Source of the DNA: Candidatus Omnitrophota bacterium
GTDB taxonomy: Bacteria > Omnitrophota > Omnitrophia > Omnitrophales > Aquincolibacteriaceae
Assembly: GCA_043821445.1 (NCBI GenBank)
Contig: JBDRCT010000003.1
Coordinates: 5,440-69,439 of the forward strand
DNA length: 64,000 bases
Direction: 5' to 3'
Position numbers and translations under genes: made by a program. Position 1 is the first letter of the stretch. Each line of letters starts with the position of its first letter. The notes under the pieces are model-generated. The model worked only from the letters and a program-made list of their open reading frames with translations, was not told the origin of the DNA and searched no databases. Below, one piece after another: positions 42,202 through 63,990 of this stretch.

Positions 42202-42681
42202 TTACCCACCAATGGCCGTACCACCCGCGCAACCCGTATCGGCCGCGGTCGGCGCTACACCTGCCGTCGGACCATAAACAACACCCGCCTGGTCAATGCA
42301 GTAGGTGTTTTCCGCAGCAGCCGTCGGCGTCGCCAGCAGAGAATACGTGCTGGAAGGAGAGGCGACCGTAAGGTACGTCAGAGTGAACCCATGCTTGACT
42401 CCGGCTTCGACCCACGAATCATCAAGATACGCAGGGCCCGTCGCCGGAGCGGTCGTCAATGCGGCAATATCAGCCGGATAGTCCGGAGGATTCTGCGCGG
42501 CACGATAACTTTCAGCAGCTCCGCTGAATGTCCTCAGATCCGACTTGATGGCACCCTCATTGGCATTGATTCGCGCCCGGAGAAGATTGGGGATGGCAAT
42601 AGCGGCCAAGAGCCCGATGATCGCAACTACGATCATGATCTCCACCAGCGTAAAACCCTTCCTATTTAATTTGATAAACAT
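42202..42681 (-). CDS. pilA: type IV pilin (prepilin with N-terminal methylation motif)
   Basis: Start MFIKLNRKGFTLVEIMIVVAIIGLLAAIAIP is a class III signal (G|FTLVE). ATG at 42681 is preceded by AGGAGG. The tracked ORF has a 23-aa upstream extension. Confidence 0.85.
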   Translation of the reverse strand: MFIKLNRKGFTLVEIMIVVAIIGLLAAIAIPNLLRARINANEGAIKSDLRTFSGAAESYRAAQNPPDYPADIAALTTAPATGPAYLDDSWVEAGVKHGFTLTYLTVASPSSTYSLLATPTAAAENTYCIDQAGVVYGPTAGVAPTAADTGCAGGTAIGG

Positions 42682-42872
42682 GTTATTCCTCCTGTTTCTA
42701 TGTTTGCCACTGCCTACTACTAGCCTAAGCTGGTATACATCATACGACAATACGTTGGATAACTAAACTAGTTTTTTTGTTATCCGAGTTATATCCCACA
42801 ACTTTAATAAGCATCACTGAAGGGCCCTGAGGCAGATTCCTGCATGTTTTTGCGTCGGGAGGAAGGATTTCC

Positions 42873-44114
42873 TTATTTGATCGCCTGAGTAAGCGTAAGG
42901 ATGGGAAGAAAGAGAGCGATCACGATACCGCCGATCACGATACCCAGAAAAGCAATAATGAGCGGTTCGATGAGAGATGTAAGACCGGAAACAGCAGTGT
43001 CCACTTGGGTGTCATAAAAGTCCGCGATCTTTGTAAGCATCTCTTCCAATTCTCCGGTTTCTTCTCCGATCGCGATCATACGAACGACCATGGAGGGAAA
43101 GATATCGCTTTTCTCGAGTGGGCTGGCAATGCTTTCTCCGCGCTTCACGGATCCCATAAGATCCGTAATGACTTTTTCGATCCGGGCATTCCCTGAAGTT
43201 TTAGAAACGATCTCCAGAGCCGCGAGGATCGCCACGCCGCTACGCAATAGCGTGGAAAGTGTGCGCGCAAACTTGCTAACCGCCACTTTTAAAATGATCG
43301 GGCCGAAGATAGGCATGCGAAGTGTGAAGGAGTCCCAAGGCAACCGGCCCATCGGAGAGCGAACGAATTGCCGGAACAGGAAAATACTTCCGCCCAGGAC
43401 GGAGAGGATCCACCACCAATTCGCCGCAAGATAGTTACTGATACTGATCAGGATCTGAGTTGGCGTAGGCAGTTTTGCGTTGAGACCTTCAAAGATCGTT
43501 GCGAACTGCGGGATCACGAAGGCAAGCATGAAGAACGTGATCCCGAAGGCCATGACCGAAACGGCCGTCGGGTACATCACCGCAGCTTTGACCTTTTTTT
43601 GAAGGGCGCTGGACTTTTCGAAATAATGGGCCACGCGGTCCAGGATCTCCTGCAACTTCCCGCTCATCTCACCCGCACGGACCATATGAATGAAAAGCGC
43701 CGAAAAGACTTTTTGGTGCACTTGCATAGCTTCGGAAAGACTTTTACCGGTTTGGAGGTCGCTATGCATCCTCCGAAGAACCAGCCGGAACTTCTCCTTA
43801 TCCATCTGTCCGGCGAGAATGTCCAGAGCCTGGATCAAGGGGATCCCTGCTGCGACGAGCGTGGCCATTTGCCTTGAAAAGATCACAAGGTCGTCCAACT
43901 TGATTTTCCCGGACTTTCCCTGCCGGATCTTGGGAGGGGCCGACCCCTTCTGAATACTCAGGATGGCAGATCCCTTCTTGGCCTGTTCCACACGGACTAC
44001 AAGATAGCCCTGCGTCTTCAGCTGGTGGACGAGCTCTTGCACGTCCTGGGCGTCCTGGAAGCCCTTCAGATCTTTTCCCGTCTTATCCTTGACCCAATAT
44101 TCAAACGATGGCAT
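42873..44114 (-). CDS. pilC: type IV pilus platform protein PilC / GspF family
   Basis: 413 aa. Two T2SSF repeats. Three TM segments. Confidence 0.9.
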   Translation of the reverse strand: MPSFEYWVKDKTGKDLKGFQDAQDVQELVHQLKTQGYLVVRVEQAKKGSAILSIQKGSAPPKIRQGKSGKIKLDDLVIFSRQMATLVAAGIPLIQALDILAGQMDKEKFRLVLRRMHSDLQTGKSLSEAMQVHQKVFSALFIHMVRAGEMSGKLQEILDRVAHYFEKSSALQKKVKAAVMYPTAVSVMAFGITFFMLAFVIPQFATIFEGLNAKLPTPTQILISISNYLAANWWWILSVLGGSIFLFRQFVRSPMGRLPWDSFTLRMPIFGPIILKVAVSKFARTLSTLLRSGVAILAALEIVSKTSGNARIEKVITDLMGSVKRGESIASPLEKSDIFPSMVVRMIAIGEETGELEEMLTKIADFYDTQVDTAVSGLTSLIEPLIIAFLGIVIGGIVIALFLPILTLTQAIK

Positions 44115-44117
44115 AGC

Positions 44118-45812
44118 TCACTCCCGGCTTGCAACGCGAAGCACTTCCTCGAGCGTGGTCACCCCGGATTTAAAGAGTCCCAGTGCGTTCTCGAAGAGTG
44201 TCTCCATTCCCTTTTCAACGGCAAGCTGATGAATAACATTACTCGATTTTTTCCGGATTACAAGCTCCCGGATGTCCGGGTCCACAAGCAGCACTTCACT
44301 TGCGCCGGTCCTGCCAAAATATCCCGTCATGTTGCACTTGATACAACCCTTTCCCGTGAACGGGGCGATCCTGTCCAATTCCGACTTGGAAAATTTACAG
44401 CGAAACAGGACTTCCGCGGGTATGACGGCCGGGGCCCTGCAATTCGGGCAGATCTTCCTGAGTAGACGCTGGGCGCCAACGCATACGACCGACGAGGCGA
44501 TCAAAAAAGGCTCCACTCCCATATCGATAAGACGTGTCATCGCACCGGCCGCGCTATTCGTATGAAGTGTGCTGAACACTAGGTGCCCGGTCAAGGCGGC
44601 TTTTACCGCAATATCGGCAGTCTCCGAATCGCGGATCTCTCCCACCAGTACAATGTCCGGACTTTGGCGCAAGAGAGCGCGTAAACCGTTCGCGAACGTA
44701 AGCCCGATCTCCGGTTGCACCTGCGTCTGCGTGATCCCTTCAACCTGATATTCGACAGGATCCTCTACGGTCATTAAATTCTTTTGCGGCGTGTTCAGAG
44801 AGTTAAGGATCGAATATAGAGTGGTGGATTTCCCACTGCCCGTCGGCCCGGTGATCAGGATCATCCCATAAGGCTTTTTGACCGCCTCAGCAAGAGCACG
44901 CGTCGGTTTTTCCGTAAAACCAAGCTTGTCAAGCCCCGTCCTGATCCCGCTCCGGTCCAGAACGCGCAACACCATTTTCTCGCCGAAATAGGTTGGCAAC
45001 ACGGAAACACGAAAATCGATCTGCCGGTCCTTGAGTAATAACCGGAACCGCCCGTCCTGGGGTAAACGTTTTTCAGTAATATCCAAAAGAGAAATGATCT
45101 TCGCCCGCGCCACGAGAGCGGGATAAAGCTCCAAGGAATGAGAAAACGACTCTTTCAAAACCCCGTCGACACGGTACCGAATACGGAATTCTTTTTCATA
45201 AGGCTCGAAATGGATGTCGGACGCGCGCGATTTGAGGGCTTTTTCGAGAATGAAGTTGACCATCTTGATGACGGGTGCATCATCGACTCCGGCCTGCACG
45301 ACAGACGGCAACTCCGTTTCATTCTCTCTGACAAGCTCCAGGCTGTCTGCGTCTTTTTCGGTAATGAACTCAGAAAAGTTTTTGCTTTCCGCGTAATGGT
45401 CGCTGATGGCAGCGGCGATCCGTGCAGGCGTGACCAATACCGGACTCACATCGCATCCCGTCAGATGCTTGATATCATCGAAAACCCTCAGTTGGAATGG
45501 ATCGCTTGTGGCCACGGTCACAAGTTTCCCGACGCGTCCTACCGGAAAAACATGATGCAGCTCAATGAATTTCCGTGAAAACATCCTCAGGACTTCTAGA
45601 TCGAACTGCATTCCGTGGAGATTCAAGGTGGGGATCTCAAGTTGAGCGCTCAAAAAATCCATGACCTCTTCTTCCAACAGGATCTTTTCTGAGAGGATAA
45701 TTTTCAAAATGCTTTCATTGTGTTTCTGTGCCGTCTGTTCCAAACGGTCACACTCCCCGTCGGAAAGCCCCATTGTTTTCACCCATGCTCGAACGATTTG
45801 CTTGTCGATCAT
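44118..45812 (-). CDS. pilB: type IV pilus assembly ATPase PilB / GspE family
   Basis: 564 aa. N-terminal T2SSE_N domain. Walker A ITGPTGSGKSTT. Tetracysteine CPNC...CIKC. Confidence 0.9.
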   Translation of the reverse strand: MIDKQIVRAWVKTMGLSDGECDRLEQTAQKHNESILKIILSEKILLEEEVMDFLSAQLEIPTLNLHGMQFDLEVLRMFSRKFIELHHVFPVGRVGKLVTVATSDPFQLRVFDDIKHLTGCDVSPVLVTPARIAAAISDHYAESKNFSEFITEKDADSLELVRENETELPSVVQAGVDDAPVIKMVNFILEKALKSRASDIHFEPYEKEFRIRYRVDGVLKESFSHSLELYPALVARAKIISLLDITEKRLPQDGRFRLLLKDRQIDFRVSVLPTYFGEKMVLRVLDRSGIRTGLDKLGFTEKPTRALAEAVKKPYGMILITGPTGSGKSTTLYSILNSLNTPQKNLMTVEDPVEYQVEGITQTQVQPEIGLTFANGLRALLRQSPDIVLVGEIRDSETADIAVKAALTGHLVFSTLHTNSAAGAMTRLIDMGVEPFLIASSVVCVGAQRLLRKICPNCRAPAVIPAEVLFRCKFSKSELDRIAPFTGKGCIKCNMTGYFGRTGASEVLLVDPDIRELVIRKKSSNVIHQLAVEKGMETLFENALGLFKSGVTTLEEVLRVASRE

Positions 45813-47578
45813 GGGCCGCCCCCTCTGGGTGGTAACCCAGCATCCGCTATCGTAACGCGGAAAACCTCATCGAGCGATGTTTCGCCCGTTAGGGCCTTTT
45901 GGACCGCAGATTCGCGCAGCGTGTTCATTCCGTGTTCTCGGGCTCTGGCCTTGATCGCATCCGCGGACGCACCTTGCATGATCAGCTCCAAGATATCCGG
46001 CTTCATTTCCAGGATCTCGGTGATCACGCTCCGGCCCTGATATCCCAGTTGGCGGCACTGCGAACAGCCTTTGGCTTTCCAGAGCTGGACCTTCTTTTTC
46101 GGATCCAGGTTCAGGAACTTATACATATCCGGTTCTAGATCGTATGCGAAGCGGCAACGCGGGCAGAGGCGGCGCACCAAACGCTGGGCCGAGATCATCA
46201 GCACCGTCGACGCAATCAGGAACGGCTCTAGTCCCAAATTCGCCATGCGGGTCACAGAACTCACCGCATCGTTGGTGTGAAGCGTGCTCAAAACGAGATG
46301 ACCCGTAAGCGCGGCCTTGACGGCGATATCGAGCGTTTCCGCATCGCGGATCTCCCCGATCAAGATAATGTCAGGATCTTGACGCAGGATCGAACGGAGA
46401 GCCGCGGGAAACGTCAACCCAATGGATTCGCGAACATTGACCTGATTGATACCGGCTATCTGATATTCCACAGGATCCTCGACGGTCGTGATATTGACCT
46501 GTGGAGAATCCAAATACTTAAGGACCGAATAAAGTGTGGTCGTCTTCCCGCTCCCGGTCGGCCCGGTCACGAGGATCATCCCATGCGGCTTCTTGGCGGA
46601 AGTCCGGATCACCTCCTGCTCTGATGCCGTAAACCCGAGTTTTTGAATGTCATGAGACTGTGCCCCGGTATCCAAAATGCGTAAGCAAACTTTTTCGCCG
46701 AAGCTGGAAGGCAATATGGAAACGCGCATGTCCACTTCCCGGCCCTGAGTTCTCACTTTAAAACGGCCATCCTGAGGCACTCGATGCTCCGCAATATTGA
46801 GCTGACTCATGATCTTGACGCGGGAAACAATGGCATCGCCAAAACTTTTTTGGGGTCTTACGATCTCTTCGAGAATACCGTCAATGCGCATGCGGATCCG
46901 GACAAAACCTTCCCAGGGTTCAATGAAAATATCGCTCGCACGGCGACGCACCCCCTCCACGAGCGCCATGTTGACAAGTTTCACGACTGGGGCCTGGTTC
47001 GCCTGCTCCATGAGGTCCGAGGCCTGCTGCTGCTTATCGAAGATCGCTTCGCTTTCGACCATATGGGCAAGAGAGATGAGGTCTTCGGTGCCTTCATCCG
47101 GAACGGGTTCTTCCAAGACAGCGGTCTCTCCCTGATAGGATTTCTGTATGTATTCCTTGAGCTGGGAATATTCCGCCACCGAGACCCGGATACGCTTTCC
47201 GGTCAAGGAGTGAAGTTCATCCAAAGTCTTTAGATTGGTCGGATTCGCAACCGCGACCGTCAACGTATTTTCATAGAGAACGATCGGGAGACACACATAG
47301 GCCTCCGCGATCTTCCGGGGAATGAGTTCCAGGACTTCTTTGTGAATGATAAGCATTTTGAGACTGACGATACGATAGCCGTACTCTTTACAAAGAATGT
47401 CCACGAGTTTTTTTTCGTCGCATTTTCCTTTCTGAAGAAGAATGTCCAGAAAATGGAGCTTTTTCGAGCTCTTGGCCTGCTCCTGGATCGCCTGCTGAAG
47501 TTCCCCTGAATTGACGACCCCGAACCGAAGAAGGGCTTCTTTCAGGTCCGGCAATGAACTTCGCTTGGGGTCCGTCAT
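45809..47578 (-). CDS. second GspE/PilB-family secretion ATPase (paralogue)
   Basis: 589 aa. N-terminal T2SSE_N-like domain. Walker A VTGPTGSGKTTT. Tetracysteine CPRCR...CSQCR. 4-nt overlap with pilB. Confidence 0.85.
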   Translation of the reverse strand: MTDPKRSSLPDLKEALLRFGVVNSGELQQAIQEQAKSSKKLHFLDILLQKGKCDEKKLVDILCKEYGYRIVSLKMLIIHKEVLELIPRKIAEAYVCLPIVLYENTLTVAVANPTNLKTLDELHSLTGKRIRVSVAEYSQLKEYIQKSYQGETAVLEEPVPDEGTEDLISLAHMVESEAIFDKQQQASDLMEQANQAPVVKLVNMALVEGVRRRASDIFIEPWEGFVRIRMRIDGILEEIVRPQKSFGDAIVSRVKIMSQLNIAEHRVPQDGRFKVRTQGREVDMRVSILPSSFGEKVCLRILDTGAQSHDIQKLGFTASEQEVIRTSAKKPHGMILVTGPTGSGKTTTLYSVLKYLDSPQVNITTVEDPVEYQIAGINQVNVRESIGLTFPAALRSILRQDPDIILIGEIRDAETLDIAVKAALTGHLVLSTLHTNDAVSSVTRMANLGLEPFLIASTVLMISAQRLVRRLCPRCRFAYDLEPDMYKFLNLDPKKKVQLWKAKGCSQCRQLGYQGRSVITEILEMKPDILELIMQGASADAIKARAREHGMNTLRESAVQKALTGETSLDEVFRVTIADAGLPPRGGGP

Positions 47579-52986: not shown

Positions 52987-55900
52987 TTACGCGGCAGACT
53001 GGATCGCCTGCAACGCCTGCATTGCGATTACCAGCATCTTGCTCAAAGCATCCTGGCTGAACGAACGGAAACCATTTTCATCTTTCTCTCCGTTGAGTAC
53101 TTCCTTGATCGCATCGACCTCGCTCGCGCTCAGGATTCGCTGGGACACGATGGACGCAAGGGTCGAAGTCGCGACCCGGCGGCTCACATCCGTACTATAA
53201 GGCTCCTTGATCATGAGCCCCCTGCCTGTATCCGTCTTGAACACTTTCAAAAATTGATCGGAACCCATAAAGACATAACCCAGTGGCCCTCTGGAAATCG
53301 CCGGCATTGTTTTCATTTTCGAGGTGATAAAATTATTCAGAGCAGTTTCCGGATTATTCTTATCGACCACGATGATATCAAAACGTTTTTCGGCGTTTAA
53401 TTCCTTAAGAGTTTTTGCTAATCGCTGCTCCATTCCCCTCTTTCGTTGCTCTGCTGCCGCAACTTCAGCCGCACCGTCCGCCATCAACACCATAACCTTC
53501 CCTTGCATTTTATTAACCAATGTCCCGAGATCTGCGGGCTCAATGATCGCATCCGCAGGCACGAGCTCAATCTCAAGCCCCTGCTTGTCCATGATTTCAA
53601 TTTGGGTCGTTTTCCCAAATAATGCTCCTGCCAACCCAGTAAAGACATCCCGAATAGCGGTGACCCAACCCGCGGTTTTCGCAGCGCTCGCGTTCGCAAG
53701 TTGCACAATAACATCAGCCATTTGCTCCGCCTTCAACCCGTCATCGAACACCATCCCCGCCACCGCCGCTACAATGACCGGCCCTTTCGCTCCCTGAACC
53801 TCCAGATTATTCACTGCCTCGACATTTGGCCCAATTTTAGCCTGCTCGACAACCAACATATCAGCAGGTGAGATTGCTTCACGAACGACCCTCATCTCGG
53901 AGCGTTGAGTTCCCGGCTCAGCTCCCGGAGATTCGGTTTCAAGGCGCTTTCCAACGGCCTTGAGTTCAGCCGCAACACGAGTTTTTTCGATTTTTGCTGC
54001 TTCAGCTTCGCGCACCTCAGAACGTTTCTCCGTCCCAGGCGCTCCACCCGGCATCTGATCGGTAAATTCCCTTTCAACAAAATCGTTCAACTTATCGATG
54101 CTGACTTCCTCCAGATCCCTGAAGGTCGCGAACATCTTCCTGGCCCCTTCCGCCCAGGATTCCTTTACTTTGGGCGGCTCACTCTCCCAAATAGCCAACA
54201 AGTCACTCACCGTCCTCCAGCGGGCATACTCATTTTCTCCCCTCCCGCCGTTCATCTTGAACCGGTCATAAATGGCGCCGGGATTGGCTTCCAAAACATA
54301 TTTTTGTATCGGGATGTACTTACCCTTAATTCCTGACAAGACCGCGAACCCTTTTTGCTGCGCCAGCCCCAACGCAACACAGAGAAGTGCTAATCCCGGA
54401 TGGAGCCCAATGCGCTGCGGAAAGGTCTCCCGAATCTGTTCCTTTTGATTAAGCCCGCCCGTGATCACAGCCACTCTCAATGCTTCACCGTTCTCTGCCT
54501 GCTGAGTATCAACGCCGATGCGATAGATCCATTGGGTCCTCTCACCTATCGCCTCCCCGATGGCTATGAGAACCCCGGAGGAGCCTTTCCCGAAGCCATA
54601 GCGCATTTCGATCAAGTAGGGTGTGCCACTGATACGCGCGATCTGTACGGATTGACGTCTCCGGAACTCCGGAGCGAACATCTGTTCCATTTTTTTCATA
54701 TTCTGTGTCGCCAAAACTAATTTTGTTTTGCTATCAAGTCCCGGCGGCAGATTGTAAAAAAACCGCCCTTGAGGATTCTGATCGATACGATATTGGCTCA
54801 AATAGGTCCTGAAAAAATCCTCGAAAACTTCGGCGGGAACGTTCCGCGGCACGACCTGGTTCTCCATCATCCACTCGAACAAGCTCCCGGTCTGCTTCTC
54901 TTCGATCTCCATGCTTTCCCGGAGCTTTTGGGACAAAAGCTTTAGCAGCTCATCGCAGGGTTTTTTTGTGAATGCCCGGATCCTGAAAATATAGTCCAGG
55001 GTTTGTTGGACCAGATCGAGCCTAAGCGGCTCACCCGCCGAAGGACTCAAAAGCCATGAAGCAATCTCATTCGCCTTCTCGTTCGAAAGGATCTGCCGTT
55101 TCTTGACGGAAACCGTCAGATACCCCAAAATATCCTCCCGCGTCTCGGAGCGAGCTGAAGGTATGGCCTCTTTAAGATGACCTGCGAGAGACTCCAAATA
55201 GGCTTCATCCACTTGCGGACCGACCCAATCGGGAGACTTTGTGAGATAGACTTTAGGATCGGGCTGGAGACCGTAGCGGTTCAGGAAATCCAAAAGCGGT
55301 GTGCTTTGTTTCCCGAAGTTATTTGGGTCGGTGTGATACCCTGCAGTTCCTAGTTCCTTTCTCATGTTCACCGTAATCCACTCCGGCGGCGACTCTTGGA
55401 GCGAATAAGCGTCAGCACAAACGGTCACGAATGTTTCGGTTCCAAAGATCTTCCCGGCCAGTTGATCCAGCTCCTTACCCTTCAGTTCAACGATCACAGG
55501 CCTGAACCACCATCCTATCTTTTGCATCGTCCAAATACGAATCGCCACAGGGCCCAGGATCTTTTCTGATGGCGGAACATGGACAAAATAAGTGATAAGT
55601 CCTTCGCGTAAAGCACGCGACCCCCAGTTCCCTTCGTTAATGGGTACTAAATATTGCTGCGTCCACGTTCCAACATCCGGATGGGCGTCAAAATTCACCA
55701 GGATCGGCAAAGCGGGGTTGGCCTCCCCCCGTTGTTTTCTCTCGCGGAACCGCTCCCGGAGATAATCTAAGACCCCGTCATGGGTCTCGATCGTGACCAC
55801 TTCTGTCCCAACTTTCGTCAGGACTCCTTTTCGCATTTCGGAGCGGGAAACGGGCTTTTCAGCAATGAGTTCGGAATAAGGCACGCGACGGCCGCCGAGT

Positions 55901-58900
55901 TCGTCTAGGGATTGTCTGGCTTTTTCGCGCTGAGCCTTGTAGAAAAGAAAAAGAAGCGCGGGAGCTTTGGCGGGGTTGAATCTGGCAATCTTACCGTATT
56001 TCCCTTCGTCCACGTCCATGGCCTTTTCGAGATCTTCCGGGGAAACCGCCTTTACCACATCCGAAAGCCACGCCGCCATCTTCATAACATTATCGATCTT
56101 TTGAAGAGGAGTGAGTTGAGAAGCGAGTCCGTTGAGACGCTCCAGGTCTGCTTGCTGGGCAATGATCAACAGAAGTATGGGAGATGTCGTTTCCGGAGTA
56201 CCCGGGATTTTTTTAAGTTCCTCTTCTAACTTCAACCCCGCCTTGTCAAATGTTTCGATGGTGGTGGGCGGACCACGATTCCTTTGGACATCCCCATGAA
56301 AAACTTCCACTATTTCGTCCGGGGCCACCCGGAAGATGATCTCTCCCCTTTCAAGCATCTCTGGGACCGTCTCTTCATCTTTGACCCCAAAAAGTTCGCG
56401 GGCGCTCCCGGAAACGGCTGTAATGGCCTGATCTCCGCCTTTATAGCCAACCCCGTCCATGTTTTGATATTCATGGAAGGCTCTCGGGATCGCCTGTCCC
56501 TTGTAACCCAGAACAATGAGGTGTCTCGTTTCCTTAATATCAACTTTCCGCGCTGCCTCCTGTCCCGCTCCTTCGGTTAAGAGACCTGTAAGGGTGTCGA
56601 TGATCTTCGGGTCCCTTTTTTCAGAGCTCGATGCCCGTTCTGCGAGCTTTTTCGACACCTCTTCGATCTTGTCCCGAGTCACTTCCTTTTTAACAAAAAT
56701 CCCGACTTTCACCTGATTCCTTTTCTTTTTAGCTTCCGAAAGTGCGTCATTGGCCAGCCACATCGCGCACTCATCAAAAAGTTCTATGCGCTCAGGCCTT
56801 AAAGTTTCTACGTCATCCTTTATATAAGTCCAATAATTGCCGCCGTCCTCGTGCTTAACGTCTTTCATCACCTCTTTAAAATAGTCCAGCACCCCGGACT
56901 GTTCCGGGAATTCAGGGTTCCCGGCAGCAGGAGCCGCTCCGATAGAAATAGTGAGAAATCCCCATTTTTGGGGAGTTGCGTTTTCAGATTGGATCTTTTC
57001 AAATCGGATCTCGTGAAGCTGATCGCCTTCCAGATTCAGTTTCGTATGAAGATCTCGCAAAAAGTCCTGCCATTTTCCCTCAGCATCTAACTTCCTCCGA
57101 TCGACACGGATGTATGTGCTCCCCGCATAAAGCACTGCGCTAAGTACGGAAGCATATTCTTTTGATTCGAAAATCTTCGCTTCATTTTCAGTAAGCGTTT
57201 TCTCCACTTCTAAAACCGCATAGCGTCCAAAAAATTCTTCATTGAGGTCTCGCAGGAAATTCTCCAGATCTTCTTGGGTAACTTTCCTTGCGGGAACGAA
57301 TATGATTTCATCGCCTCCAACACCCCGGTAAACTTCTAGGCCATATTTTTTGGCGATCACAAGTATCGTTTTCCGGTAATCGAGAACGGGTGAGTCTTTG
57401 GGCGTGATAAGATGCTCACCCGATCTTTCCAGGCTCATGACCCCCACGATGCCTTTCCCGCCGAGTGCGAGATTCTTGGCGCCGATCTTATCGAAATCCG
57501 ACATATAAAAACGGAAATTTTGAAGATCCGTCACACTTGGGTGTGCCCGCAGATATTTCAAACGTTGTTCCTTTCCGTCGTCCTGTGTTCCCCAGCCGTC
57601 CGATGATTTGAAAGCGTCCGGTTCAACACGAATTCCCAATTTTTCAGCTGTCTCAGGCGTCAATCGCGTGCTTGCGGGAATGGTAACCGTTTCAATTTCT
57701 CCGGTTTCCGAATTCCGGTGCGTGATCTTGAGGCCACCCTCTACTGCTACCTGGAGGTTCAGCAAATCTGCTACTGCCGCTTTGTGACTTGTCGGCGGAC
57801 TCGAATAGACATCGACAGCGCCGCCTTCTCTCATGGCCACTTCCAGCCCCCGAAGCTGCTCATTGATCTCGTCGATCTTCTCCTGTGTTATTTTCTCTGT
57901 CCGCATCTCGGAGCGTGGGAAAGCCATCAAAGCCGTTGCCGGTGTTTGCTGGGTGAACCGGTCCCCGGTATCGCCGCCATCAACAAAAAGAGCCTCCTTG
58001 ATGTCATAGGTGGTGTGCCAGTTTTCTAATGCCTCTATAAGCTTAGCCGTGGTCGGTCCCGTCCAACCAAAAATATCCCAGCCAAAAATATCCAGAGTGT
58101 GGACCCTTCCGCTTGGATCTACCCCCACAACGCTTTTCCGGCCTGAGAAAATACTTTTATGCCAATTCTCAATATTAGGATTCAAATTTCCTTCCGTGAT
58201 AGCCATGGGACCGGCCTGAAAACCTTGCGCCCATTGCTCTTTCGGGTAATTCTCCGGACGAAAGCCTTCTGCTGGCCTGATAAGCACGTCTCCGTTCCTG
58301 TTCAGTAGAAAAATTCCTTTCAACATGGCTGATCCGTTTTCTATGAATGCCCTATCCTGAGCATCCTCGCTCAACCGGAACCACCCTATGGCTCTCCTGC
58401 TTATCTCCCTAAAAGGATTGGCGTTCGAGACGTAGGTCCACCCCTCAGCCAGCAGTTGTTTGATATCCTTCCGTTCCACAATGCGGAACTCATATTTTTT
58501 GGGATCGAATTCGCGGGTCCCTTCGCTACTCCAATGATCGACCGTTGCCTTCTGTGCCACCCCAATCCCAAGAGACAAACCAAGAGCCCCCAGCAACAAG
58601 TTCCGCCTTGAGAAGATTTGAACCTCTTCCTGCCGCATCTCGGAACGCCCCTTGCCTTTGGGCGTGGCAGCTTTTCCGGCTTTTGCTTTTTGTGGACTGG
58701 GTTTCACGGTTTTCGGAGGGGTCTTTAAAATAGGATCCAGTTGTCGCGCGTACTGATTGAGCTCTGGGGTCAACCGTTCTACGGTATCTTTCGCATCGCG
58801 AACGGCCTTTGCCGCCTCGTTTTTGATCATTTCCCATTCGGCCGCCGTGTACCCTTTGTTGGAATAACCTTCCAGTTTTTTAAGCATTCGGCCGGCCTCA

Positions 58901-61900
58901 CCGAGATACCCCGTTTCAAGTTTTGCAAGGTTCCTTAGATTAATAGAAATGCGGTTCCTATATTGTTGAAGCTTCTTAAGATTGCGTTCTTTAGCGGGTT
59001 TATCCATTTCTCCCCGAATTGCTTCCGCAAGCGACTCGGCATCCCGGATCCTGCGAAGCGAGTTGGTAAGGGGCACGTTGACATGTTCGACCTGGTAGAG
59101 ATCCACCGTGAGATTCTTGAAAAGTGCGGCCGTTTGCTTCCGGTAACTGTCGCTTAAGGCTTCGCCCATCGTTCGTTCCACCAACTCTGCCGCAAACGCT
59201 TTAACGGCAACCGCTTTTAGGTAGGTCGCAAGCCCGTAATGAAGGTCGGCTTCCTCCCCCTCGTTCCTGGGCTTTGCGGTATCTCCCAGGTAAGGCGTAT
59301 TGTATTTCCTGTGGAACCGCGGCCACCCATCCTTCTCCCCGGGCCGGCCGGCAACATCCTGGGCTGAGGGTTCCATACGAATGAGGATAAACAGCCGCCA
59401 CAGGAGATGCTGCAACGTCGGGTCCGACGCGATACTTTCACGAACCCTGGCCGTTTCCGGTCTCCCCCTCTTTTTCTTTCTTATATTGTCTAAGTCCAGG
59501 GTGTTATATGTTGGGGACTTAAGCGCCTTATAAAAAGCGTCCACGCCGGGCGTCCAATTCTTTTCGATGAGCTGCCTAACAGGACTGCCTTCAGGAGCCA
59601 TCATTGCTTCGCGAAAAACGTCGACCGCCGATTGGGCTTCGATCTGGAAGGGGCCGGCCGCAGGACCTTTTTTCTTTTGATAGGGTTCGAACGTCGGATT
59701 TTCGAGATAGGTCAGATAGATCGCAGCGAACGCCAGATGCTGGATGCGCTCGGCACGTTCTTTTTCAGAAATGCCGGGATAAAGTGTCCTCTCGGAATCC
59801 CTTAAGAAAACCATGGTGTCCAGGTAGTGACGGACAATACGCTGCATCCGTTCGTCCTGTATATTCTCCGTATCGATCGCCGTCAAATCGCCTTGCAGCG
59901 CTTCAAGATCAAATGGGGTAAGTGCCCTCACCGGCGCGACGAGGGCCGTACTGACCGTCGAAGGTTTGCCTGGCAGCAATGCATTGTGAAACACGTAATA
60001 GACCGCCCCCCCAATCAGCAACACCAATGACAGTGTACCGATCACAAGCGTTCGTTTGATACGGGCAAGTTCGGACTTGGGAATTATGATCCTTAGCCGT
60101 ACTTTATCCTCATCCCGAATTTCGGAGCGGGAATTCTGAACGGCCCAATTGATGACTGCCTGGGACAGTTGACCGGGATAGGCGTTGATCAGGCCGGAGC
60201 TCGATATGCTGAAGACAACAACACTGTCTGGAACGGGCGGCGTTTTGTAACCGTCCGAATTGGGGTCGTATCGTGTTACCGCCAGCGGCACAGAGGCTGC
60301 CTTCGCGGGATCATATTTTGGGGGGTCGAAAACATAATATCGGGTTTTGAAAAATTCGGCGGTTTCAACGCGGGTAACGTTCTCCTCCGCCAAAAAGCTC
60401 CTGCTTCCAGCCAAACCCTGCTGGTAATGCGCCATATGGATCAATTCGTGGAGAAGGGTCCCTGTAAATATCTCCCATGCCGCGTTCCGGTCTTTTAGCA
60501 CCCAATCCAGAGCGCCCTGATCGACCGCGATAAGCTGCGAGTACGCCCGCCCACCTGCCCCACCTCCGGGCCTGTCTGTGCTATTGGGACTGACAAAGAC
60601 ATGATTTTGCCAATTGGGATCTGCCAGCAGGTCCCGGACAACGGGATCTCTGCTATTGGGCGCCATCGCCGCGATCTCTGCCCACGCTTCTTCCAGGACC
60701 TTTTTCGCTTCAGCCGGGAGATCACGGAATGCGGTATATCCAACCGGTATATCGCTCGGTGCAACTACCGAGAGGCCCCGCGCCCCCTGGCTGCAGGCCG
60801 TTCCCGCGGTCATCACAAACGCTGCAACAGGCGCGGTCCTCGCCCAAAACACCGGATTCGAAAAGTTTAGCGATGCCGCGAGAAGTACTAATGAGGCGTT
60901 CCGTTTTAATTTTGCGGAAACTCCCCGCACCCTAGGGGCAGAAGTCTCTACCTTGGCCTGCCGGCCCGCAGCGATCCATGCTTCATCCCAAACCCGGCGA
61001 ATCTCCTCTTCACGTTTTTCCAGGCCTGGAATTACATCATAAATGAACACGGCCTTTTCATCCCGCATCTCGGAGCGGCCACTAAACAACTCCGGATGTT
61101 TTCGGAGTATCCTATCGATCATCGGGCGGGCTGCTTGTTCCGCAAGCAGGGATCTTCTTATCCTTTTGTATCTTTCGATAAGCTTCGCACGAACTTCCAG
61201 TGAAACCCGCTGATCGCCCACTAGTTGGAGAAACTTCATGTTCTCTCTTGAAGCGCTAAAAAGGTCGTCCACGGACCCGTCCTCATTGAACCTGTCCCAA
61301 TGGTCATTCTTTTTGTTTTCTTCGCCGGCCAAACCCGCTAAAACGTTAATCGTTGTTTCTTTCCCGGCAGATCGCAACATCGCGGCTAATGTGGCCTTAA
61401 AATCTTCCTTATGCGCTCCCCGGTCGTCGAGGAGGGCCGCGTCCAACGCACTAAAGGCAGCAATGGGATCAGGGTCTTCCCCAAGCATCCGGATCGCCTG
61501 CCCTAAAGCCTTCCCATAAGTCAATTCCCGACGCTTGACCTTCTCCTCGAGCCAGAAAAAAAAGTCTTTTCGAAATTGTTCCCCACGTCCCGGCTCCCGA
61601 CTTAGTTGATCCATTTCGGTCAAGGCTTGGATATAAACCTCATCCATCGTTTCGGGCGTGGAACCACGGATCAGCTCCTTCCAGTGCGCCTCCATCTCCC
61701 GAAAAGCTTCGGAGTCCAAAGGACTGGCAGGTGACGACCTTGGACCTTCCGTTCGAGGGATCGCTGGGGAGACTTGACCTGCGTCGGGAGCTTTTTCGAG
61801 GAGTTCCTCCAGCCGCGCGATCTCGGCATCCATGCCGGCAAGAACTTCTTCTTTTGTAGCGATCGGGTCGATCCGACCGCTTGCGCCATTGAACTGGATC

Positions 61901-63990
61901 CCGCCCTTGTTAAACGCCAGATGACCGGGATCGCCCTCGTCCACATCAATGATAAAAACCCGGTTGTTTGCGCGAAATAATTTCTTCAAGTGGATATGTG
62001 CACCAACAATTCCGGCACAGCCAAGTCTCGTCAAGTAATTATCAAGAACAGCTTCATTGACCCGGGGCTCGGCACCGTCAACGGAGGAGCCGAAGAATTG
62101 ATCAATCCAGTCTTTTTTCTTGGCCCAAAATATATCTTTTGCGCTCAAAAAATACCCTGTCAGATGATCCTGATTGGCTTTTATTTCCAACCTCGGATCG
62201 TTCTCTAACCCCTTTTGAATGGCCGACCATTCTTCCCCAAGCCTCTCCAATGCTTCCCGGTCGATCGTGGGATTTCCGTCCTTGTTCATGGGAATACCGG
62301 CATGGACATGAAGGAACCCGCGCTCGTCCTCGGCAAAAAGTTTGAAATTCCGAACCATCCAGAGAGCCAGCTCTTGAACAGAGGAAAGATCCCGGACCAG
62401 CCAATCCGCTGCATAACCGCCAACCTTCTGTTCTGCTTCATTCATTTCCTTTAATGACTCTAAGAGCATTCTTTCGTCACCTGTCTTGCGTGCCTGGCTA
62501 TATTTTTGGATTGCCCGTCGATATTTAATTGCTGCTTGATTTGCCGCCTCGACTTCTCCCGGCCGGAATGGAAATCCAAACTCCTTGAGCGTTGCACAGG
62601 CGCCATTGATAATCCAATCCGTAAACGTACTCGGATCCTTTAATAGAACGGATTCGATCATAAAAACATCGTGGTTCCCGAGGAATAGGTCAACCTTGAT
62701 ATTGGGATGATCTTGGGTAAGTTGGACCAGTTCCTGAAAGATCTCCCAGACCCTTTTGTTTTGGCCTCCGCGGTCAAATCCGTCTCCGTGACCCATGATG
62801 TGAAGGGGCTTCCCGGTCCTGGCAGCTTCCTTTGCCTCCGACAGGATCGCTTCCAGATCCCCCACTTTCCCGTGCTTATCCCCGAATGTTAATATCTCGG
62901 GAATTTCACGGCCCTCCGCATCACGACCTGTTGCAATACGCTCCTGGGAACCTTTCAGGTAGTCGATCCTTTTTCTGTAATACTCTTTCGTTCCTGGCAC
63001 CTCCCGCATTTCGGAACGGGTAACGGGAGGCTGTTGTTCTTCGGCTTTTGGCGCCACCGTTGATCCGGCATTTATGTTAAGTTCTGCTAGAGCATTAATT
63101 AATGCATTGATCCGCGCGGATCTTTCCGCGTCTAGGCGATCTACATTTTGTTCTTTGACTACTTTTAAAGCCTGCAGGACCGTCGCTCCTAGAGCCTGTT
63201 GCCGTGTCCGTATCAAGCTCAAAACATCTTCCGGTTTTCCCCCAAGGACGCGCTGAAGATCCTGGGGATCGATCGAAGCCACATCGCGTACGGCTTGAAC
63301 CAGGAACTCAGGACCCGCTTCACTCAACGCTTTCAACACCAAGGGACCATCGAATGAGAACGGCGTACCGATCGGCTGGATTCCGGCAGCATTGGTCAGG
63401 TCATAGAGGACATAGTAGCGGCGTCCGTCGATCGTGGAAATACCGACATTATGGTCCAGTTTAAAATCGGTGGCCCCGGTAAGCGCCAAAAACGCCAGGA
63501 TCTTCTCGATCCCCGAAGTACGCGGGTCAGCCAACTCCGGCAAAGTCAGATCGTTTGCATCACGGGACAAAATGGCGGTCACAGAATTCAGAGAATTGAT
63601 GTCGTAGCGCAAACCCATAATCTGCGCGTTCCAATATCTGGAAAATTTTTCGGGCATTGATAAATCTTCCACAGAGATCTCGGTCCAGCGCGGTATGTTT
63701 ACACCCGCAAGCGCTGCTAACTGATACCCTCTCTTTTCTTTCTGCATTTCTGAAGGTGTGTCCAGTTTTAGGTACCATTTTTCATTCGTGGTCCTGTCGT
63801 TGACGTACCAGGCGTATTCCGGAGCTCTTTTCAAAACCTCTAAATCGACCGCTTTGGGAAACACCGCCGCGGCTCCCCCTTGATCCCGCACTTCGGACCG
63901 GGAAAGAACTTTCTTCAAACCCAAGTTGAGTTTGTGTTTTAACTCCTCCGTGAATTCCTCCGGGATGATCTTTCCCGTAGGCAACTTCAC
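52987..63990 (-). CDS. giant 3,667-aa multi-enzyme polyprotein; modules separated by conserved R-S-E-[MVIT]-R junctions
   Basis: Uninterrupted 11,004-nt ORF. Junction copies at aa 32, 326, 973, 1289, 1783, 2027, 2717, 2948, 3324 and 3364.
Modules:
- aa 36-325: kinase-like (TDFKLDHNVGIS...YVLYDL).
- aa 330-972: PPP metallophosphatase (GDxHG-like HIMGHGDGFDRGG; GNHD; VHAGIP; GAHIH).
- aa 977-1288: HExxH metallopeptidase (TLLHELIHMAHY).
- aa 1293-1782: TM signal-anchor plus possible lysozyme-like region.
- aa 1787-2026: Tat-like signal (SRRNLLLGALGLSLGIGVAQKA) plus phosphodiester-glycosidase-like (ALFVDGGDTG).
- aa 2031-2716: GGDEF-like palm (SDFDKIGAKN...RGVGGDEIIF).
- aa 2721-2947: DAHxD motif (LVNFDAHPDVG).
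- aa 2952-3323 and aa 3368-3667: unknown. Confidence 0.8.
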   Translation of the reverse strand: MKLPTGKIIPEEFTEELKHKLNLGLKKVLSRSEVRDQGGAAAVFPKAVDLEVLKRAPEYAWYVNDRTTNEKWYLKLDTPSEMQKEKRGYQLAALAGVNIPRWTEISVEDLSMPEKFSRYWNAQIMGLRYDINSLNSVTAILSRDANDLTLPELADPRTSGIEKILAFLALTGATDFKLDHNVGISTIDGRRYYVLYDLTNAAGIQPIGTPFSFDGPLVLKALSEAGPEFLVQAVRDVASIDPQDLQRVLGGKPEDVLSLIRTRQQALGATVLQALKVVKEQNVDRLDAERSARINALINALAELNINAGSTVAPKAEEQQPPVTRSEMREVPGTKEYYRKRIDYLKGSQERIATGRDAEGREIPEILTFGDKHGKVGDLEAILSEAKEAARTGKPLHIMGHGDGFDRGGQNKRVWEIFQELVQLTQDHPNIKVDLFLGNHDVFMIESVLLKDPSTFTDWIINGACATLKEFGFPFRPGEVEAANQAAIKYRRAIQKYSQARKTGDERMLLESLKEMNEAEQKVGGYAADWLVRDLSSVQELALWMVRNFKLFAEDERGFLHVHAGIPMNKDGNPTIDREALERLGEEWSAIQKGLENDPRLEIKANQDHLTGYFLSAKDIFWAKKKDWIDQFFGSSVDGAEPRVNEAVLDNYLTRLGCAGIVGAHIHLKKLFRANNRVFIIDVDEGDPGHLAFNKGGIQFNGASGRIDPIATKEEVLAGMDAEIARLEELLEKAPDAGQVSPAIPRTEGPRSSPASPLDSEAFREMEAHWKELIRGSTPETMDEVYIQALTEMDQLSREPGRGEQFRKDFFFWLEEKVKRRELTYGKALGQAIRMLGEDPDPIAAFSALDAALLDDRGAHKEDFKATLAAMLRSAGKETTINVLAGLAGEENKKNDHWDRFNEDGSVDDLFSASRENMKFLQLVGDQRVSLEVRAKLIERYKRIRRSLLAEQAARPMIDRILRKHPELFSGRSEMRDEKAVFIYDVIPGLEKREEEIRRVWDEAWIAAGRQAKVETSAPRVRGVSAKLKRNASLVLLAASLNFSNPVFWARTAPVAAFVMTAGTACSQGARGLSVVAPSDIPVGYTAFRDLPAEAKKVLEEAWAEIAAMAPNSRDPVVRDLLADPNWQNHVFVSPNSTDRPGGGAGGRAYSQLIAVDQGALDWVLKDRNAAWEIFTGTLLHELIHMAHYQQGLAGSRSFLAEENVTRVETAEFFKTRYYVFDPPKYDPAKAASVPLAVTRYDPNSDGYKTPPVPDSVVVFSISSSGLINAYPGQLSQAVINWAVQNSRSEIRDEDKVRLRIIIPKSELARIKRTLVIGTLSLVLLIGGAVYYVFHNALLPGKPSTVSTALVAPVRALTPFDLEALQGDLTAIDTENIQDERMQRIVRHYLDTMVFLRDSERTLYPGISEKERAERIQHLAFAAIYLTYLENPTFEPYQKKKGPAAGPFQIEAQSAVDVFREAMMAPEGSPVRQLIEKNWTPGVDAFYKALKSPTYNTLDLDNIRKKKRGRPETARVRESIASDPTLQHLLWRLFILIRMEPSAQDVAGRPGEKDGWPRFHRKYNTPYLGDTAKPRNEGEEADLHYGLATYLKAVAVKAFAAELVERTMGEALSDSYRKQTAALFKNLTVDLYQVEHVNVPLTNSLRRIRDAESLAEAIRGEMDKPAKERNLKKLQQYRNRISINLRNLAKLETGYLGEAGRMLKKLEGYSNKGYTAAEWEMIKNEAAKAVRDAKDTVERLTPELNQYARQLDPILKTPPKTVKPSPQKAKAGKAATPKGKGRSEMRQEEVQIFSRRNLLLGALGLSLGIGVAQKATVDHWSSEGTREFDPKKYEFRIVERKDIKQLLAEGWTYVSNANPFREISRRAIGWFRLSEDAQDRAFIENGSAMLKGIFLLNRNGDVLIRPAEGFRPENYPKEQWAQGFQAGPMAITEGNLNPNIENWHKSIFSGRKSVVGVDPSGRVHTLDIFGWDIFGWTGPTTAKLIEALENWHTTYDIKEALFVDGGDTGDRFTQQTPATALMAFPRSEMRTEKITQEKIDEINEQLRGLEVAMREGGAVDVYSSPPTSHKAAVADLLNLQVAVEGGLKITHRNSETGEIETVTIPASTRLTPETAEKLGIRVEPDAFKSSDGWGTQDDGKEQRLKYLRAHPSVTDLQNFRFYMSDFDKIGAKNLALGGKGIVGVMSLERSGEHLITPKDSPVLDYRKTILVIAKKYGLEVYRGVGGDEIIFVPARKVTQEDLENFLRDLNEEFFGRYAVLEVEKTLTENEAKIFESKEYASVLSAVLYAGSTYIRVDRRKLDAEGKWQDFLRDLHTKLNLEGDQLHEIRFEKIQSENATPQKWGFLTISIGAAPAAGNPEFPEQSGVLDYFKEVMKDVKHEDGGNYWTYIKDDVETLRPERIELFDECAMWLANDALSEAKKKRNQVKVGIFVKKEVTRDKIEEVSKKLAERASSSEKRDPKIIDTLTGLLTEGAGQEAARKVDIKETRHLIVLGYKGQAIPRAFHEYQNMDGVGYKGGDQAITAVSGSARELFGVKDEETVPEMLERGEIIFRVAPDEIVEVFHGDVQRNRGPPTTIETFDKAGLKLEEELKKIPGTPETTSPILLLIIAQQADLERLNGLASQLTPLQKIDNVMKMAAWLSDVVKAVSPEDLEKAMDVDEGKYGKIARFNPAKAPALLFLFYKAQREKARQSLDELGGRRVPYSELIAEKPVSRSEMRKGVLTKVGTEVVTIETHDGVLDYLRERFRERKQRGEANPALPILVNFDAHPDVGTWTQQYLVPINEGNWGSRALREGLITYFVHVPPSEKILGPVAIRIWTMQKIGWWFRPVIVELKGKELDQLAGKIFGTETFVTVCADAYSLQESPPEWITVNMRKELGTAGYHTDPNNFGKQSTPLLDFLNRYGLQPDPKVYLTKSPDWVGPQVDEAYLESLAGHLKEAIPSARSETREDILGYLTVSVKKRQILSNEKANEIASWLLSPSAGEPLRLDLVQQTLDYIFRIRAFTKKPCDELLKLLSQKLRESMEIEEKQTGSLFEWMMENQVVPRNVPAEVFEDFFRTYLSQYRIDQNPQGRFFYNLPPGLDSKTKLVLATQNMKKMEQMFAPEFRRRQSVQIARISGTPYLIEMRYGFGKGSSGVLIAIGEAIGERTQWIYRIGVDTQQAENGEALRVAVITGGLNQKEQIRETFPQRIGLHPGLALLCVALGLAQQKGFAVLSGIKGKYIPIQKYVLEANPGAIYDRFKMNGGRGENEYARWRTVSDLLAIWESEPPKVKESWAEGARKMFATFRDLEEVSIDKLNDFVEREFTDQMPGGAPGTEKRSEVREAEAAKIEKTRVAAELKAVGKRLETESPGAEPGTQRSEMRVVREAISPADMLVVEQAKIGPNVEAVNNLEVQGAKGPVIVAAVAGMVFDDGLKAEQMADVIVQLANASAAKTAGWVTAIRDVFTGLAGALFGKTTQIEIMDKQGLEIELVPADAIIEPADLGTLVNKMQGKVMVLMADGAAEVAAAEQRKRGMEQRLAKTLKELNAEKRFDIIVVDKNNPETALNNFITSKMKTMPAISRGPLGYVFMGSDQFLKVFKTDTGRGLMIKEPYSTDVSRRVATSTLASIVSQRILSASEVDAIKEVLNGEKDENGFRSFSQDALSKMLVIAMQALQAIQSAA

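Follow-up and report, generated by a model that had tools for sequence, protein, structure and literature searches.

A strict R-[S/A]-E-x-R pentapeptide borders exchangeable modules in a family of giant Omnitrophota proteins and is a candidate polyprotein junction

Introduction

MARTX toxins are encoded by a single giant open reading frame (ORF) in which conserved N- and C-terminal regions enclose a mosaic, strain-variable middle of unrelated modules that are released at inter-module sites; these inter-domain sites are loose and Leu-based. The gingipain precursors of Porphyromonas gingivalis (RgpA, Kgp, HagA) are multi-domain chains processed at Arg/Lys into separate domains. Viral polyproteins (picornaviruses, potyviruses, nidoviruses; 3C-like proteases) carry unrelated proteins serially in one frame, with a short peptide of genome-specific flavour at the borders. 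Short conserved sequences also border exchangeable coding cassettes, as in the sfx repeats of the R64 shufflon, the 17-bp repeats of Borrelia vls and attC of integrons. Here we describe a giant gene of a Candidatus Omnitrophota bacterium whose 3′ part lies in a 64,000-nt stretch of contig JBDRCT010000003.1 (assembly GCA_043821445.1; positions 5,440 to 69,439 of the forward strand), referred to below as the window. The pentapeptide R-[S/A]-E-x-R (“junction”) recurs along its product at the borders between unrelated modules. From comparisons across the family we lean, if not strongly, towards a carrier-with-cargo polyprotein whose modules would be released by a site-specific endopeptidase acting at the junction, with the TIKI-fold head domain of the same protein as the leading candidate enzyme.

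Giant ORFs of Omnitrophota are a recognised puzzle. Two surveys (Nielsen & Lui 2026; West-Roberts et al. 2023) described long ORFs of many unrelated domains in this phylum, including the archaeovorin- and dockerin-type proteins of West-Roberts et al., near-universally with a signal peptide or transmembrane (TM) helices, among proteins of at least 10 kAA (thousand amino acids; Nielsen & Lui 2026) or genes longer than about 30 kb. The surveys suggested post-translational cleavage, with C39 and S8 peptidase domains as possible enzymes, and according to one of them the cleavage points are unknown, which blocks structural analysis. Neither survey text contains a junction motif, a linker or the polyprotein concept, and our literature search on the motif, on Omnitrophota polyproteins and on bacterial polyproteins found nothing relevant.

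Results

Ten junctions in a gene that continues beyond the window

Translation of the window showed a minus-strand ORF without a stop inside the frame and with its stop codon at 52987-52989 (Table 1). Its translation matches, with 100% identity, residues 2604-6270 of ABH891_00465 (hereafter P0001), a protein of 6,270 aa from a metagenome-assembled genome at NCBI. A first-pass annotation, made from the DNA letters alone, had the window stop 10 nt upstream of the start codon; this is wrong, since the frame stays open to the edge and GTG 63990 encodes an internal valine. The 7.8 kb of the gene beyond the window edge were examined as protein only.

RSE[M/V/I/T]R occurs exactly ten times in the window ORF, as the first-pass annotation had reported, with M at x six times, V twice, and I and T once each. 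The composition of the ORF predicts 0.074 copies, and the maximum in 20,000 residue shuffles was three. Full-length P0001 has 18 R-[S/A]-E-x-R motifs where 0.38 are expected, and in a six-frame translation of the rest of the window (53 kb) R[SA]ExR was confined, at chance level, to short frames of 31-194 codons between stops. The ten motifs split the ORF into pieces of 33, 294, 647, 316, 494, 244, 690, 231, 376, 40 and 302 aa. That they stand at module borders, also part of the original description, was confirmed by homology: blocks aligned by BLASTP between P0001 and its relatives mostly begin or end 0-3 residues from a motif, and in phmmer alignments the projected position fell no more than 15 residues from a motif of the target for 12 of 16 module starts and for 9 of 16 module ends. 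The codon that follows the junction does tend to encode Asp or Glu (6 of 10 junctions). The earlier count of six exact nucleotide copies proved too high: only two copies (57901-57915 and 61063-61077) match CGCTCCGARATGCGG exactly, and the remaining junctions are off by 1 nt (six), 2 nt (one) or 4 nt (one).

Table 1. Features of the giant gene within the window, in the order of translation
Feature	Coordinates	Strand	Remarks
C-terminal 3,667 codons and stop of the 6,270-codon gene	52987..63990	-	Frame open up to the window edge
Junction 1, RSEVR (CGG TCC GAA GTG CGG)	63886..63900	-	P0001 residues 2634-2638
M1, 294 aa	63010..63891	-	No significant family match; homologous modules in P0002 and P0008/L044, beginning 1 residue from a junction
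Junction 2, RSEMR (CGT TCC GAA ATG CGG)	63004..63018	-	Border M1/M2
M2, 647 aa	61069..63009	-	N-terminal calcineurin-like metallophosphoesterase and helical C-terminal part
Junction 3, RSEMR (CGC TCC GAG ATG CGG)	61063..61077	-	Border M2/M3; exact consensus
M3, 316 aa	60121..61068	-	HELIH motif at 60436-60450; sub-threshold Tox-MPTase3 match (E = 0.043)
Junction 4, RSEIR (CGC TCC GAA ATT CGG)	60115..60129	-	Border M3/M4
M4, 494 aa	58639..60120	-	K/R-rich stretch at start, then TM helix 59989-60051
Junction 5, RSEMR (CGT TCC GAG ATG CGG)	58633..58647	-	Border M4/M5
M5, 244 aa	57907..58638	-	Signal-peptide-like RR and hydrophobic segment 58546-58608, then NAGPA-like phosphodiester glycosidase domain
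Junction 6, RSEMR (CGC TCC GAG ATG CGG)	57901..57915	-	Border M5/M6; exact consensus
M6, 690 aa	55837..57906	-	No significant family match; homologous modules in P0002, P0020 and L017
Junction 7, RSEMR (CGC TCC GAA ATG CGA)	55831..55845	-	Border M6/M7
M7, 231 aa	55144..55836	-	DAHPD motif at 55675-55689; weak agmatinase match (E = 0.012)
Junction 8, RSETR (CGC TCC GAG ACG CGG)	55138..55152	-	Border M7/M8
M8, 376 aa	54016..55143	-	No family match; homologues in P0002 and P0004 bounded by junctions
Junction 9, RSEVR (CGT TCT GAG GTG CGC)	54010..54024	-	Border M8/M9
M9 mini-segment, 40 aa	53896..54015	-	Between two junctions
Junction 10, RSEMR (CGC TCC GAG ATG AGG)	53890..53904	-	Border M9/C-terminal domain
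Conserved C-terminal family domain, 302 aa	52990..53895	-	Alpha/beta; terminal amphipathic helix and tail ...QAIQSAA (52990-53010)

The junction is the signature of a large family

A search with the full ORF found six long relatives, and the complete ones all share a head and a tail domain with P0001. Against 1.84 billion cluster representatives (50% identity), a profile of the head matched 9,070 at E ≤ 1e-3 and 4,979 at the stricter E ≤ 1e-30. In contigs from one genome per species it matched 252 loci, often several per genome, and those with a named phylum are all Omnitrophota. Counts of motif, length and C-terminus given below refer to the 154 family proteins analysed. The layout of these proteins is a signal peptide, the head of about 600 aa, from none to more than 20 unrelated cargo modules, and a tail of about 300 aa. 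They contain 834 copies of R-[S/A]-E-x-R against 25 expected, and in most of them this is the top recurrent gapped pentamer.

Protein length, which ranges from about 900 to 7,830 aa, follows the number of junctions (length = 1362 + 251 x junction count; r = 0.81), with a median inter-motif distance of 256 aa; the members of about 1,000 aa consist of head and tail and mostly lack the motif. Family genes carry 1.74 motifs per 1,000 aa and all flanking ORFs 0.19, or about 0.08 after setting aside four neighbouring junction-bearing ORFs. Two large proteins of these genomes that lie outside the family, one RHS-like (2,598 aa) and one of GH94 type (2,319 aa), carry no copy. From the shuffles, the family-wide counts and the flanking-ORF density we reject chance or low complexity as the source of the motif. 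The junction-bearing neighbours, large ORFs with three to seven motifs beside family genes (L079 2-3872, L082 2-9644, L049 13555-21676 and L055 14303-20654), suggest tandem family genes or a gene that continues past a frame break.

Four of the five motif positions are under strict residue selection. Taking the 660 copies of RSE.R as reference, replacement of the first R by K was found 26 times, of S by A 180 times and by P 26 times, of E by D 17 times, and of the last R by K 8 times; every other residue at these positions is at chance level. The x position of RSE.R is permissive (V 162, A 121, M 111, L 87, S 57, T 45, I 39), and K, P, W, Y and C never occur there. Across 18 homologous borders, identity is 97% at the four fixed positions and 23% over the 20 flanking residues; the upstream flanks are rich in A, S, P and G and are linker-like. 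To judge from these substitution patterns, the motif is a protein-level recognition element.

Cargo turns over between junctions

P0003 is the positional orthologue of P0001: the downstream genes (miaB-pgsA/pgpA-cinA-thpR-nth-pilB) are alike and the heads are 79% identical, and the cargo is largely different. Some cargo is shared with P0001 and other modules are tandemly duplicated. In P0003 (L001 10001-27526) one module occurs twice in tandem, at residues 736-1015 and 1036-1331, and an apparently kinase-like module of several hundred residues is present in three or four copies by eye. P0002 is also syntenic, with miaB after it; it keeps M1, M2, M4, M6 and M8 and has extra modules. Its M7 is internally deleted with both junctions retained, so that at least one short segment is the remnant of a deleted module. 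Short segments are common, with 11% of inter-junction distances in the family below 60 aa and gaps of 9-25 aa in P0003. On this comparative evidence, the motif marks the borders of units that are gained, lost, duplicated and exchanged.

In P0002 (L002 10230-11556) a stop lies within the last, kinase-like cargo module, and an ORF resumes 38 nt on, continues across a junction and the tail as far as ...IRQAA, and has miaB behind it. The break is a frameshift, an assembly error or a pseudogene and is not at a junction. We also considered whether genes are split at junctions and rejected this: the P0002 break is inside a module, and the gene upstream of P0007 is unrelated.

The variable residue has a genome-specific flavour

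Identity at x within a protein is 0.268, against 0.154 +/- 0.006 expected. For junctions of the same gene it is 0.355, for paralogous genes that share a genome 0.316, and for different genomes 0.140. In CAZDVO01 both loci read RSESR throughout (9 of 9 and 6 of 6 junctions), and in DAOPYQ01 almost all junctions of both loci are RAE[K/R]R. KSExR, RSDxR or RPExR is found in other lineages, and in P0007, P0121, P0131 and P0136 a different peptide, A-x-S-L-G, stands at the same kind of border, including those around the P0007 homologue of M7. Thus, the x residue is tuned per genome. The pattern points to a recognition partner that the genes of one genome have in common and that drifts from one genome to the next, or to frequent exchange of junctions among paralogues.

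Some modules begin like proteins with free N-termini

Strong hydrophobic 17-mers lie within 60 aa after 96 of 1,098 junctions, compared with 36 of 1,099 random positions. Many of these segments resemble classical signal peptides (e.g., RSEVR-TPFARITKAIFFAAVMFMLMLPASVRAQ). In the window, M5 starts right after its junction with an RR, a hydrophobic stretch and an A-x-A-like end, and the hydrophobic start is kept in M5 and in all five homologues in other family proteins. In 46 cases versus 23 (P = 0.008, motif arginines left out), K/R residues are more numerous on the N-terminal side of the first hydrophobic segment that follows a junction; other internal hydrophobic segments show no orientation bias (51 versus 55). 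This N-in bias counts against one uncut chain, whose successive helices would have to alternate. Cytoplasmic-type domains (response-regulator receiver, SecA motor) are present in chains that start with a signal peptide. Indirectly, then, the hydrophobic starts and the mix of domains favour the release of separate proteins.

These observations bear on an alternative in which the chain stays uncut as a giant membrane-attached multi-enzyme scaffold. R-[S/A]-E-x-R would then be a linker motif for docking a partner (a chaperone, a secretion or anchoring component, or the protein's own head or tail), and the post-junction hydrophobic segments would be ordinary internal TM helices. We regard this as a minority possibility that nevertheless deserves weight. 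Strict residue specificity and a genome-level flavour suit any protein-protein recognition, the head and tail remain fused in cargo-less members, and surveys of Omnitrophota giant proteins report many TM helices per chain and regard the proteins as single membrane-anchored products (PMC10066038). Set against it are the orientation bias of the first post-junction segments, the classical signal peptides with A-x-A ends straight after junctions, the receiver and SecA motor domains in chains headed by a signal peptide, and the segments of 9-40 aa between two motifs, which have no obvious role as docking spacers.

Synonymous codons at the junction are constrained

In the window, the junction Ser codon is TCC in 9 of 10 cases (P = 1.4e-5), the first Arg codon CGY in 9 of 10 (P = 1.7e-4) and the last Arg codon CGG in 7 of 10 (P = 6e-3), each against the ORF's own codon usage. 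The same preferences hold in a sample of 79 independent loci with 294 junctions (357 junctions with the window and four more loci). The first Arg is CGY in 81% (background 41%) and AGR in 4% (background 25%), Ser is TCC in 52% and AGY in 7% (background 34%), and the last Arg is AGG in 29% (background 13%). Codons at x tend to end in G: GTG makes up 64% of Val versus 32%, GCG 75% of Ala versus 36%, ACG 73% of Thr versus 40% and TCG 54% of Ser versus 19%. The nucleotide consensus is C-CGC-TCC-GAG-NYG-MGG-G. The first-pass annotation was therefore right that synonymous positions of the junction are conserved, and this holds family-wide as well as in the window. Its proposal of a very recent propagation of the junction fared worse, since the bias is family-wide and is kept between orthologues that are about 55% identical in their modules; for the same reason the bias is maintained rather than inertial.

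Several origins of the bias were considered. Avoidance of Shine-Dalgarno sequences was rejected: the bias is equally strong where x cannot initiate, and only CGG/AGG followed by AGY would create GGAG, which leaves the general loss of CGR, AGR and AGY unaccounted for. The flanks hold no information outside the 15 nt of the junction. Junction windows fold at -17.1 versus -13.9 kcal/mol and have a G+C content of 0.578 versus 0.512, so this is not evidence of local RNA structure. Watson-Crick pairing between nt 2 and nt 11, the third bases of the first Arg codon and of the x codon, reaches 0.501 versus 0.452 +/- 0.016 and was exceeded in 0 of 1,000 within-locus shuffles. This covariation is weak; it would fit a 3-4 bp CCGC/GCGG stem. 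The other 18 position pairs gave nothing after correction for the number of tests, and correlations among third positions were dropped as confounded by between-genome G+C differences. The codon constraint is real, none of these origins accounts for it, and a purely proteolytic model is incomplete.

A primary role of the nucleic acid is one way to read the constraint. The 15-nt core would be a DNA or RNA site (a cassette recombination site, a mini-hairpin in single-stranded DNA or mRNA, or an RNA-processing signal) and the peptide largely its translation. The synonymous bias over 79 loci, its persistence between diverged orthologues, the small nt 2/nt 11 pairing excess, the position of junctions at the breakpoints of cargo exchange and the flavour common to paralogues of one genome all agree with such a site. 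We nevertheless hold it improbable. The synonymous positions vary (CGC/CGT/CGG, TCC/TCG/TCT, GAA/GAG about 45/55) while the encoded residues stay constant; replacement of Arg by Lys or of Glu by Asp takes a single step and yet is almost absent. Conservation is limited to the 15 nt, and the lower folding energy follows the G+C content. No conserved recombinase stands beside the genes in the window and five related loci, the quite different peptide A-x-S-L-G occupies the same borders in another lineage, and an mRNA cut without stop codons would strand ribosomes. The cassette-joining scar proposed in the first-pass annotation survives in part: the junction does border the units of cargo shuffling and does carry a codon-level signal, but a passive scar would neither stay 97% identical beside flanks at 23% nor discriminate Arg from Lys.

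Peptide and codons could also act together on the ribosome. Nascent R-S-E-x-R with particular codons or tRNAs (CGY ... NNG-[A/C]GG) would cause bond skipping, release or a stall at junctions, so that a single cistron lacking internal stops would yield dozens of proteins and need no protease, a bacterial counterpart of the viral 2A “StopGo”. This model alone predicts the peptide and codon constraints together at the same five codons, but we rate it as very improbable. We know of no such separation mechanism in bacteria, the codon preferences are strong and not absolute, and the between-genome variation at x and the replacement by A-x-S-L-G are easier to obtain with a co-evolving enzyme than with a conserved ribosome.

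Internal translation starts at the ATG or GTG of the motif, which would yield nested independent products, were likewise suggested at first. Among the window x codons six are ATG, two GTG, one ATT and one ACG, and 37% of family x codons are ATG, GTG or TTG. The other 63% are not start-capable, including GCG, ACG, TCG and CAG, and there is no Shine-Dalgarno sequence 5-12 nt upstream of x, a place where GGAG or AGGA is frequent in true genes of the window. Conservation of the three codons ahead of x is at the amino-acid level, and the upstream codon bias is the same whether x can initiate or not. On the evidence of x codons, Shine-Dalgarno sequences and codon bias we reject internal initiation, whose likelihood we put close to nil.

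A predicted TIKI fold heads the family

The head, encoded upstream of the window in the P0001 gene, consists of a signal peptide and a domain of about 600 aa with the motifs HIQNAHA...EGA...GGFH. Its AlphaFold model has a predicted local distance difference test score (pLDDT) of 80-94 over most of residues 40-530 and shows an alpha/beta TIKI fold with a parallel beta-sheet core, split by a helical insertion of about 300 aa. Residues H81, E109, E187, R502 and H530 are 99-100% conserved in 141 family heads. The TIKI/TraB/Ere superfamily is described as having a catalytic set of two His and two Glu, including the His85/Glu113 pair of Bcr135, and it includes the site-specific endopeptidases TIKI (on Wnt) and RRSP (on Ras), with members often membrane-anchored (PMC6254334). 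The spacing of 28 between H81 and E109 equals that of His85 and Glu113 in Bcr135.

Pfam, scanned over residues 1-663 of the N-terminal 2,603 residues of P0001, returned no family model for the head (TraB, Cofac_haem_bdg or Erythro_esteras) and one weak unrelated match. The head profile matched nothing among PDB sequences, and a Foldseek search of the P0089 model against PDB gave nothing significant. On the predicted structure we consider the TIKI/TraB/erythromycin-esterase fold of the head reasonably firm; the more tentative step is from this fold to a putative peptidase acting on the junction.

The tail is a generic alpha/beta domain of about 300 aa with no informative match. In nearly all complete family members the C-terminus is an amphipathic helix followed by [S/A]-A (AA in 64 and SA in 54, 118 of 154 in all), which resembles C-terminal recognition tags.

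Processing at the junction

Proteolytic processing was among the first-pass proposals, and the comparative data favour it: the fixed residues are strict, borders are kept while flanks diverge, the flavour is set per genome, a replacement motif appears in other lineages, and signal-peptide-like starts come straight after the junction. In the scheme we prefer, a site-specific endopeptidase would cut at the junction and free the modules as separate proteins, and some of these would go on to use a signal peptide or membrane anchor at their own N-terminus. The conserved TIKI-fold head might itself be that endopeptidase; otherwise an unlinked single-copy protease would act. The annotation had pointed instead to the HExxH module on board, M3. 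This is ruled out: the motif is family-wide, M3 has no homologue in the other family members examined, and its Pfam match is only sub-threshold.

The position of the cut could be one of several. Cleavage between E and x may be suited to the motif, giving N-terminal M, V, A, S or T that are like natural mature ones and mostly avoid N-degron residues; cleavage between R and S or after R5 is equally possible.

A number of points weigh against this scheme. (i) Under the bacterial N-end rule an N-terminal Leu is an N-degron, and Leu occupies x in 13% of motifs (12 of 12 in P0125), where an E|x cut would expose it. (ii) The support for cleavage is comparative throughout. (iii) The TIKI/Ere fold also includes esterases and a haem-binding protein, and Pfam and Foldseek give no significant match for the head. 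(iv) With its signal peptide the head may sit outside the cytoplasm, apart from the nascent chain. (v) The putative catalytic residues of the head are kept in cargo-less, junction-less members, so cleavage of junctions in cis cannot be its sole role. (vi) Anciently diverged paralogous heads of one genome share one junction flavour, which is easier to reconcile with one trans-acting factor, or with recombination among paralogues, than with cis specificity. (vii) The codon constraint is not predicted by a purely proteolytic model.

Cargo modules and neighbouring genes of the window

Most cargo modules in the family are Pfam-dark, and the window is no exception. M2 is the only module that passes the Pfam threshold (Metallophos, E = 3e-7), with the metallophosphoesterase motifs GDKHG at 62869-62883 and GNHD at 62668-62679. 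The NAGPA match of M5 (E = 3e-5, 24.7 bits) falls just below the 25-bit Pfam cut-off. Apart from the sub-threshold match of M3, the remaining window pieces have no match in Pfam or NCBIfam, and M1, M6 and M7 have none among PDB sequences. An AlphaFold model of window modules M7-M10 from a 10-row alignment had a mean pLDDT of 47 and was unusable. The P0007 homologue of M7 is flanked by xSLG motifs instead of RSExR. Of the folds named in the first-pass annotation, the phosphatase in M2 is confirmed and the glycosidase in M5 nearly so; its kinase-like, GGDEF-like and ureohydrolase-like modules found no support in Pfam, NCBIfam or PDB sequences. Its phrase “unrelated enzymes” is accordingly right about the modules being unrelated, and an enzyme is indicated at threshold in M2 and just short of it in M5.

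The window is ordinary chromosome. The giant gene is followed downstream by miaB, pgsA-pgpA, cinA, thpR and nth and then by a type IV pilus/type II secretion system (T2SS) block; further along are genes for RNase E/G, rmuC, cca, fabF genes, tRNA synthetases, mcsB-clpC, mla genes and ispDF. The window lacks tRNA genes, mobile-element genes and a recombinase. The pilus/T2SS block (37734-47578, minus strand) has a secretin, PilM, a T2SSF platform protein and two adjacent T2SSE ATPases, and L001 likewise has this block after its orthologous giant gene. At 11975-15853 (minus strand) a ClpC-type AAA+ ATPase (Clp_N, AAA_2, ClpB_D2-small), the only protease-related gene in the window, lies directly downstream of a McsB-type ATP:guanido phosphotransferase (protein-arginine kinase). 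This mcsB-clpC pair in an Omnitrophota genome is Firmicutes-style; the junction motif holds two invariant arginines. A PIN-TRAM fusion protein is encoded amid housekeeping genes at 6330-7493 (minus strand).

Discussion

The junction code allows giant proteins to be cut in silico into units for structure prediction and annotation, at about 250 aa per junction and over more than 9,000 sequence clusters. It also lets proteomics address cleavage directly, since the termini to look for are known. If cleavage is confirmed, a whole phylum routinely uses polyproteins with shuffled cargo instead of operons, a strategy so far tied to viruses and a few toxins. A compact orthogonal cleavage site, perhaps with a TIKI-fold protease, could be of use in synthetic biology.

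At 6,270 aa, P0001 falls below the thresholds of the surveys of Omnitrophota giant proteins. It and its family are otherwise like the proteins described there: they come from the same phylum, have many distinct domains along the chain and contain a signal peptide or TM helices, as in the “multi-enzyme metabolic cluster” class.

The head has the predicted fold of the TIKI/TraB/PrgY/erythromycin-esterase/ChaN superfamily, invariant His, Glu, Glu and His residues that may correspond to its catalytic set, and a first His-Glu spacing equal to that of Bcr135. It differs in having no Pfam or PDB sequence match and in its helical insertion of about 300 aa. To our knowledge, no member of the superfamily heads a polyprotein or cuts R-S-E-x-R.

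With cassette systems the family has in common a short conserved border of exchangeable coding units and conservation at the nucleotide level. Unlike those systems, it has no linked recombinase, its 15-nt core has variable synonymous positions, and selection on residues far exceeds selection on bases. The gingipain precursors are also different, with few and related adhesin/protease domains, no pentapeptide code and a cysteine protease within the precursor.

MARTX toxins resemble the family in the single giant ORF, in the conserved regions at both ends and in central modules that are mosaic and differ between related genes; release at inter-module sites would be a further likeness. Several features set the family apart. 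Pfam and NCBIfam detected no RTX or glycine-rich repeats in the window modules or head, and no inositol-phosphate-activated cysteine protease domain (CPD; peptidase C80) in the window modules or, upstream of them, in the scanned residues 1-663 of P0001. A TIKI-fold domain is a cargo effector in MARTX and the invariant head here. The junction is a strict pentapeptide, unlike the MARTX sites, and the family is confined to Omnitrophota, with several paralogues per genome among housekeeping genes.

The differences from viral polyproteins are that the Omnitrophota gene is a cellular chromosome gene, that its modules turn over fast between orthologues and that no chymotrypsin-like or papain-like protease module was detected; we know of no viral site that R-[S/A]-E-x-R matches. 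The likeness lies in unrelated proteins placed serially in one frame, in the short border peptide and in its genome-specific flavour. By analogy, the MARTX layout is the closest bacterial counterpart of this family, and the viral polyprotein is the closest overall.

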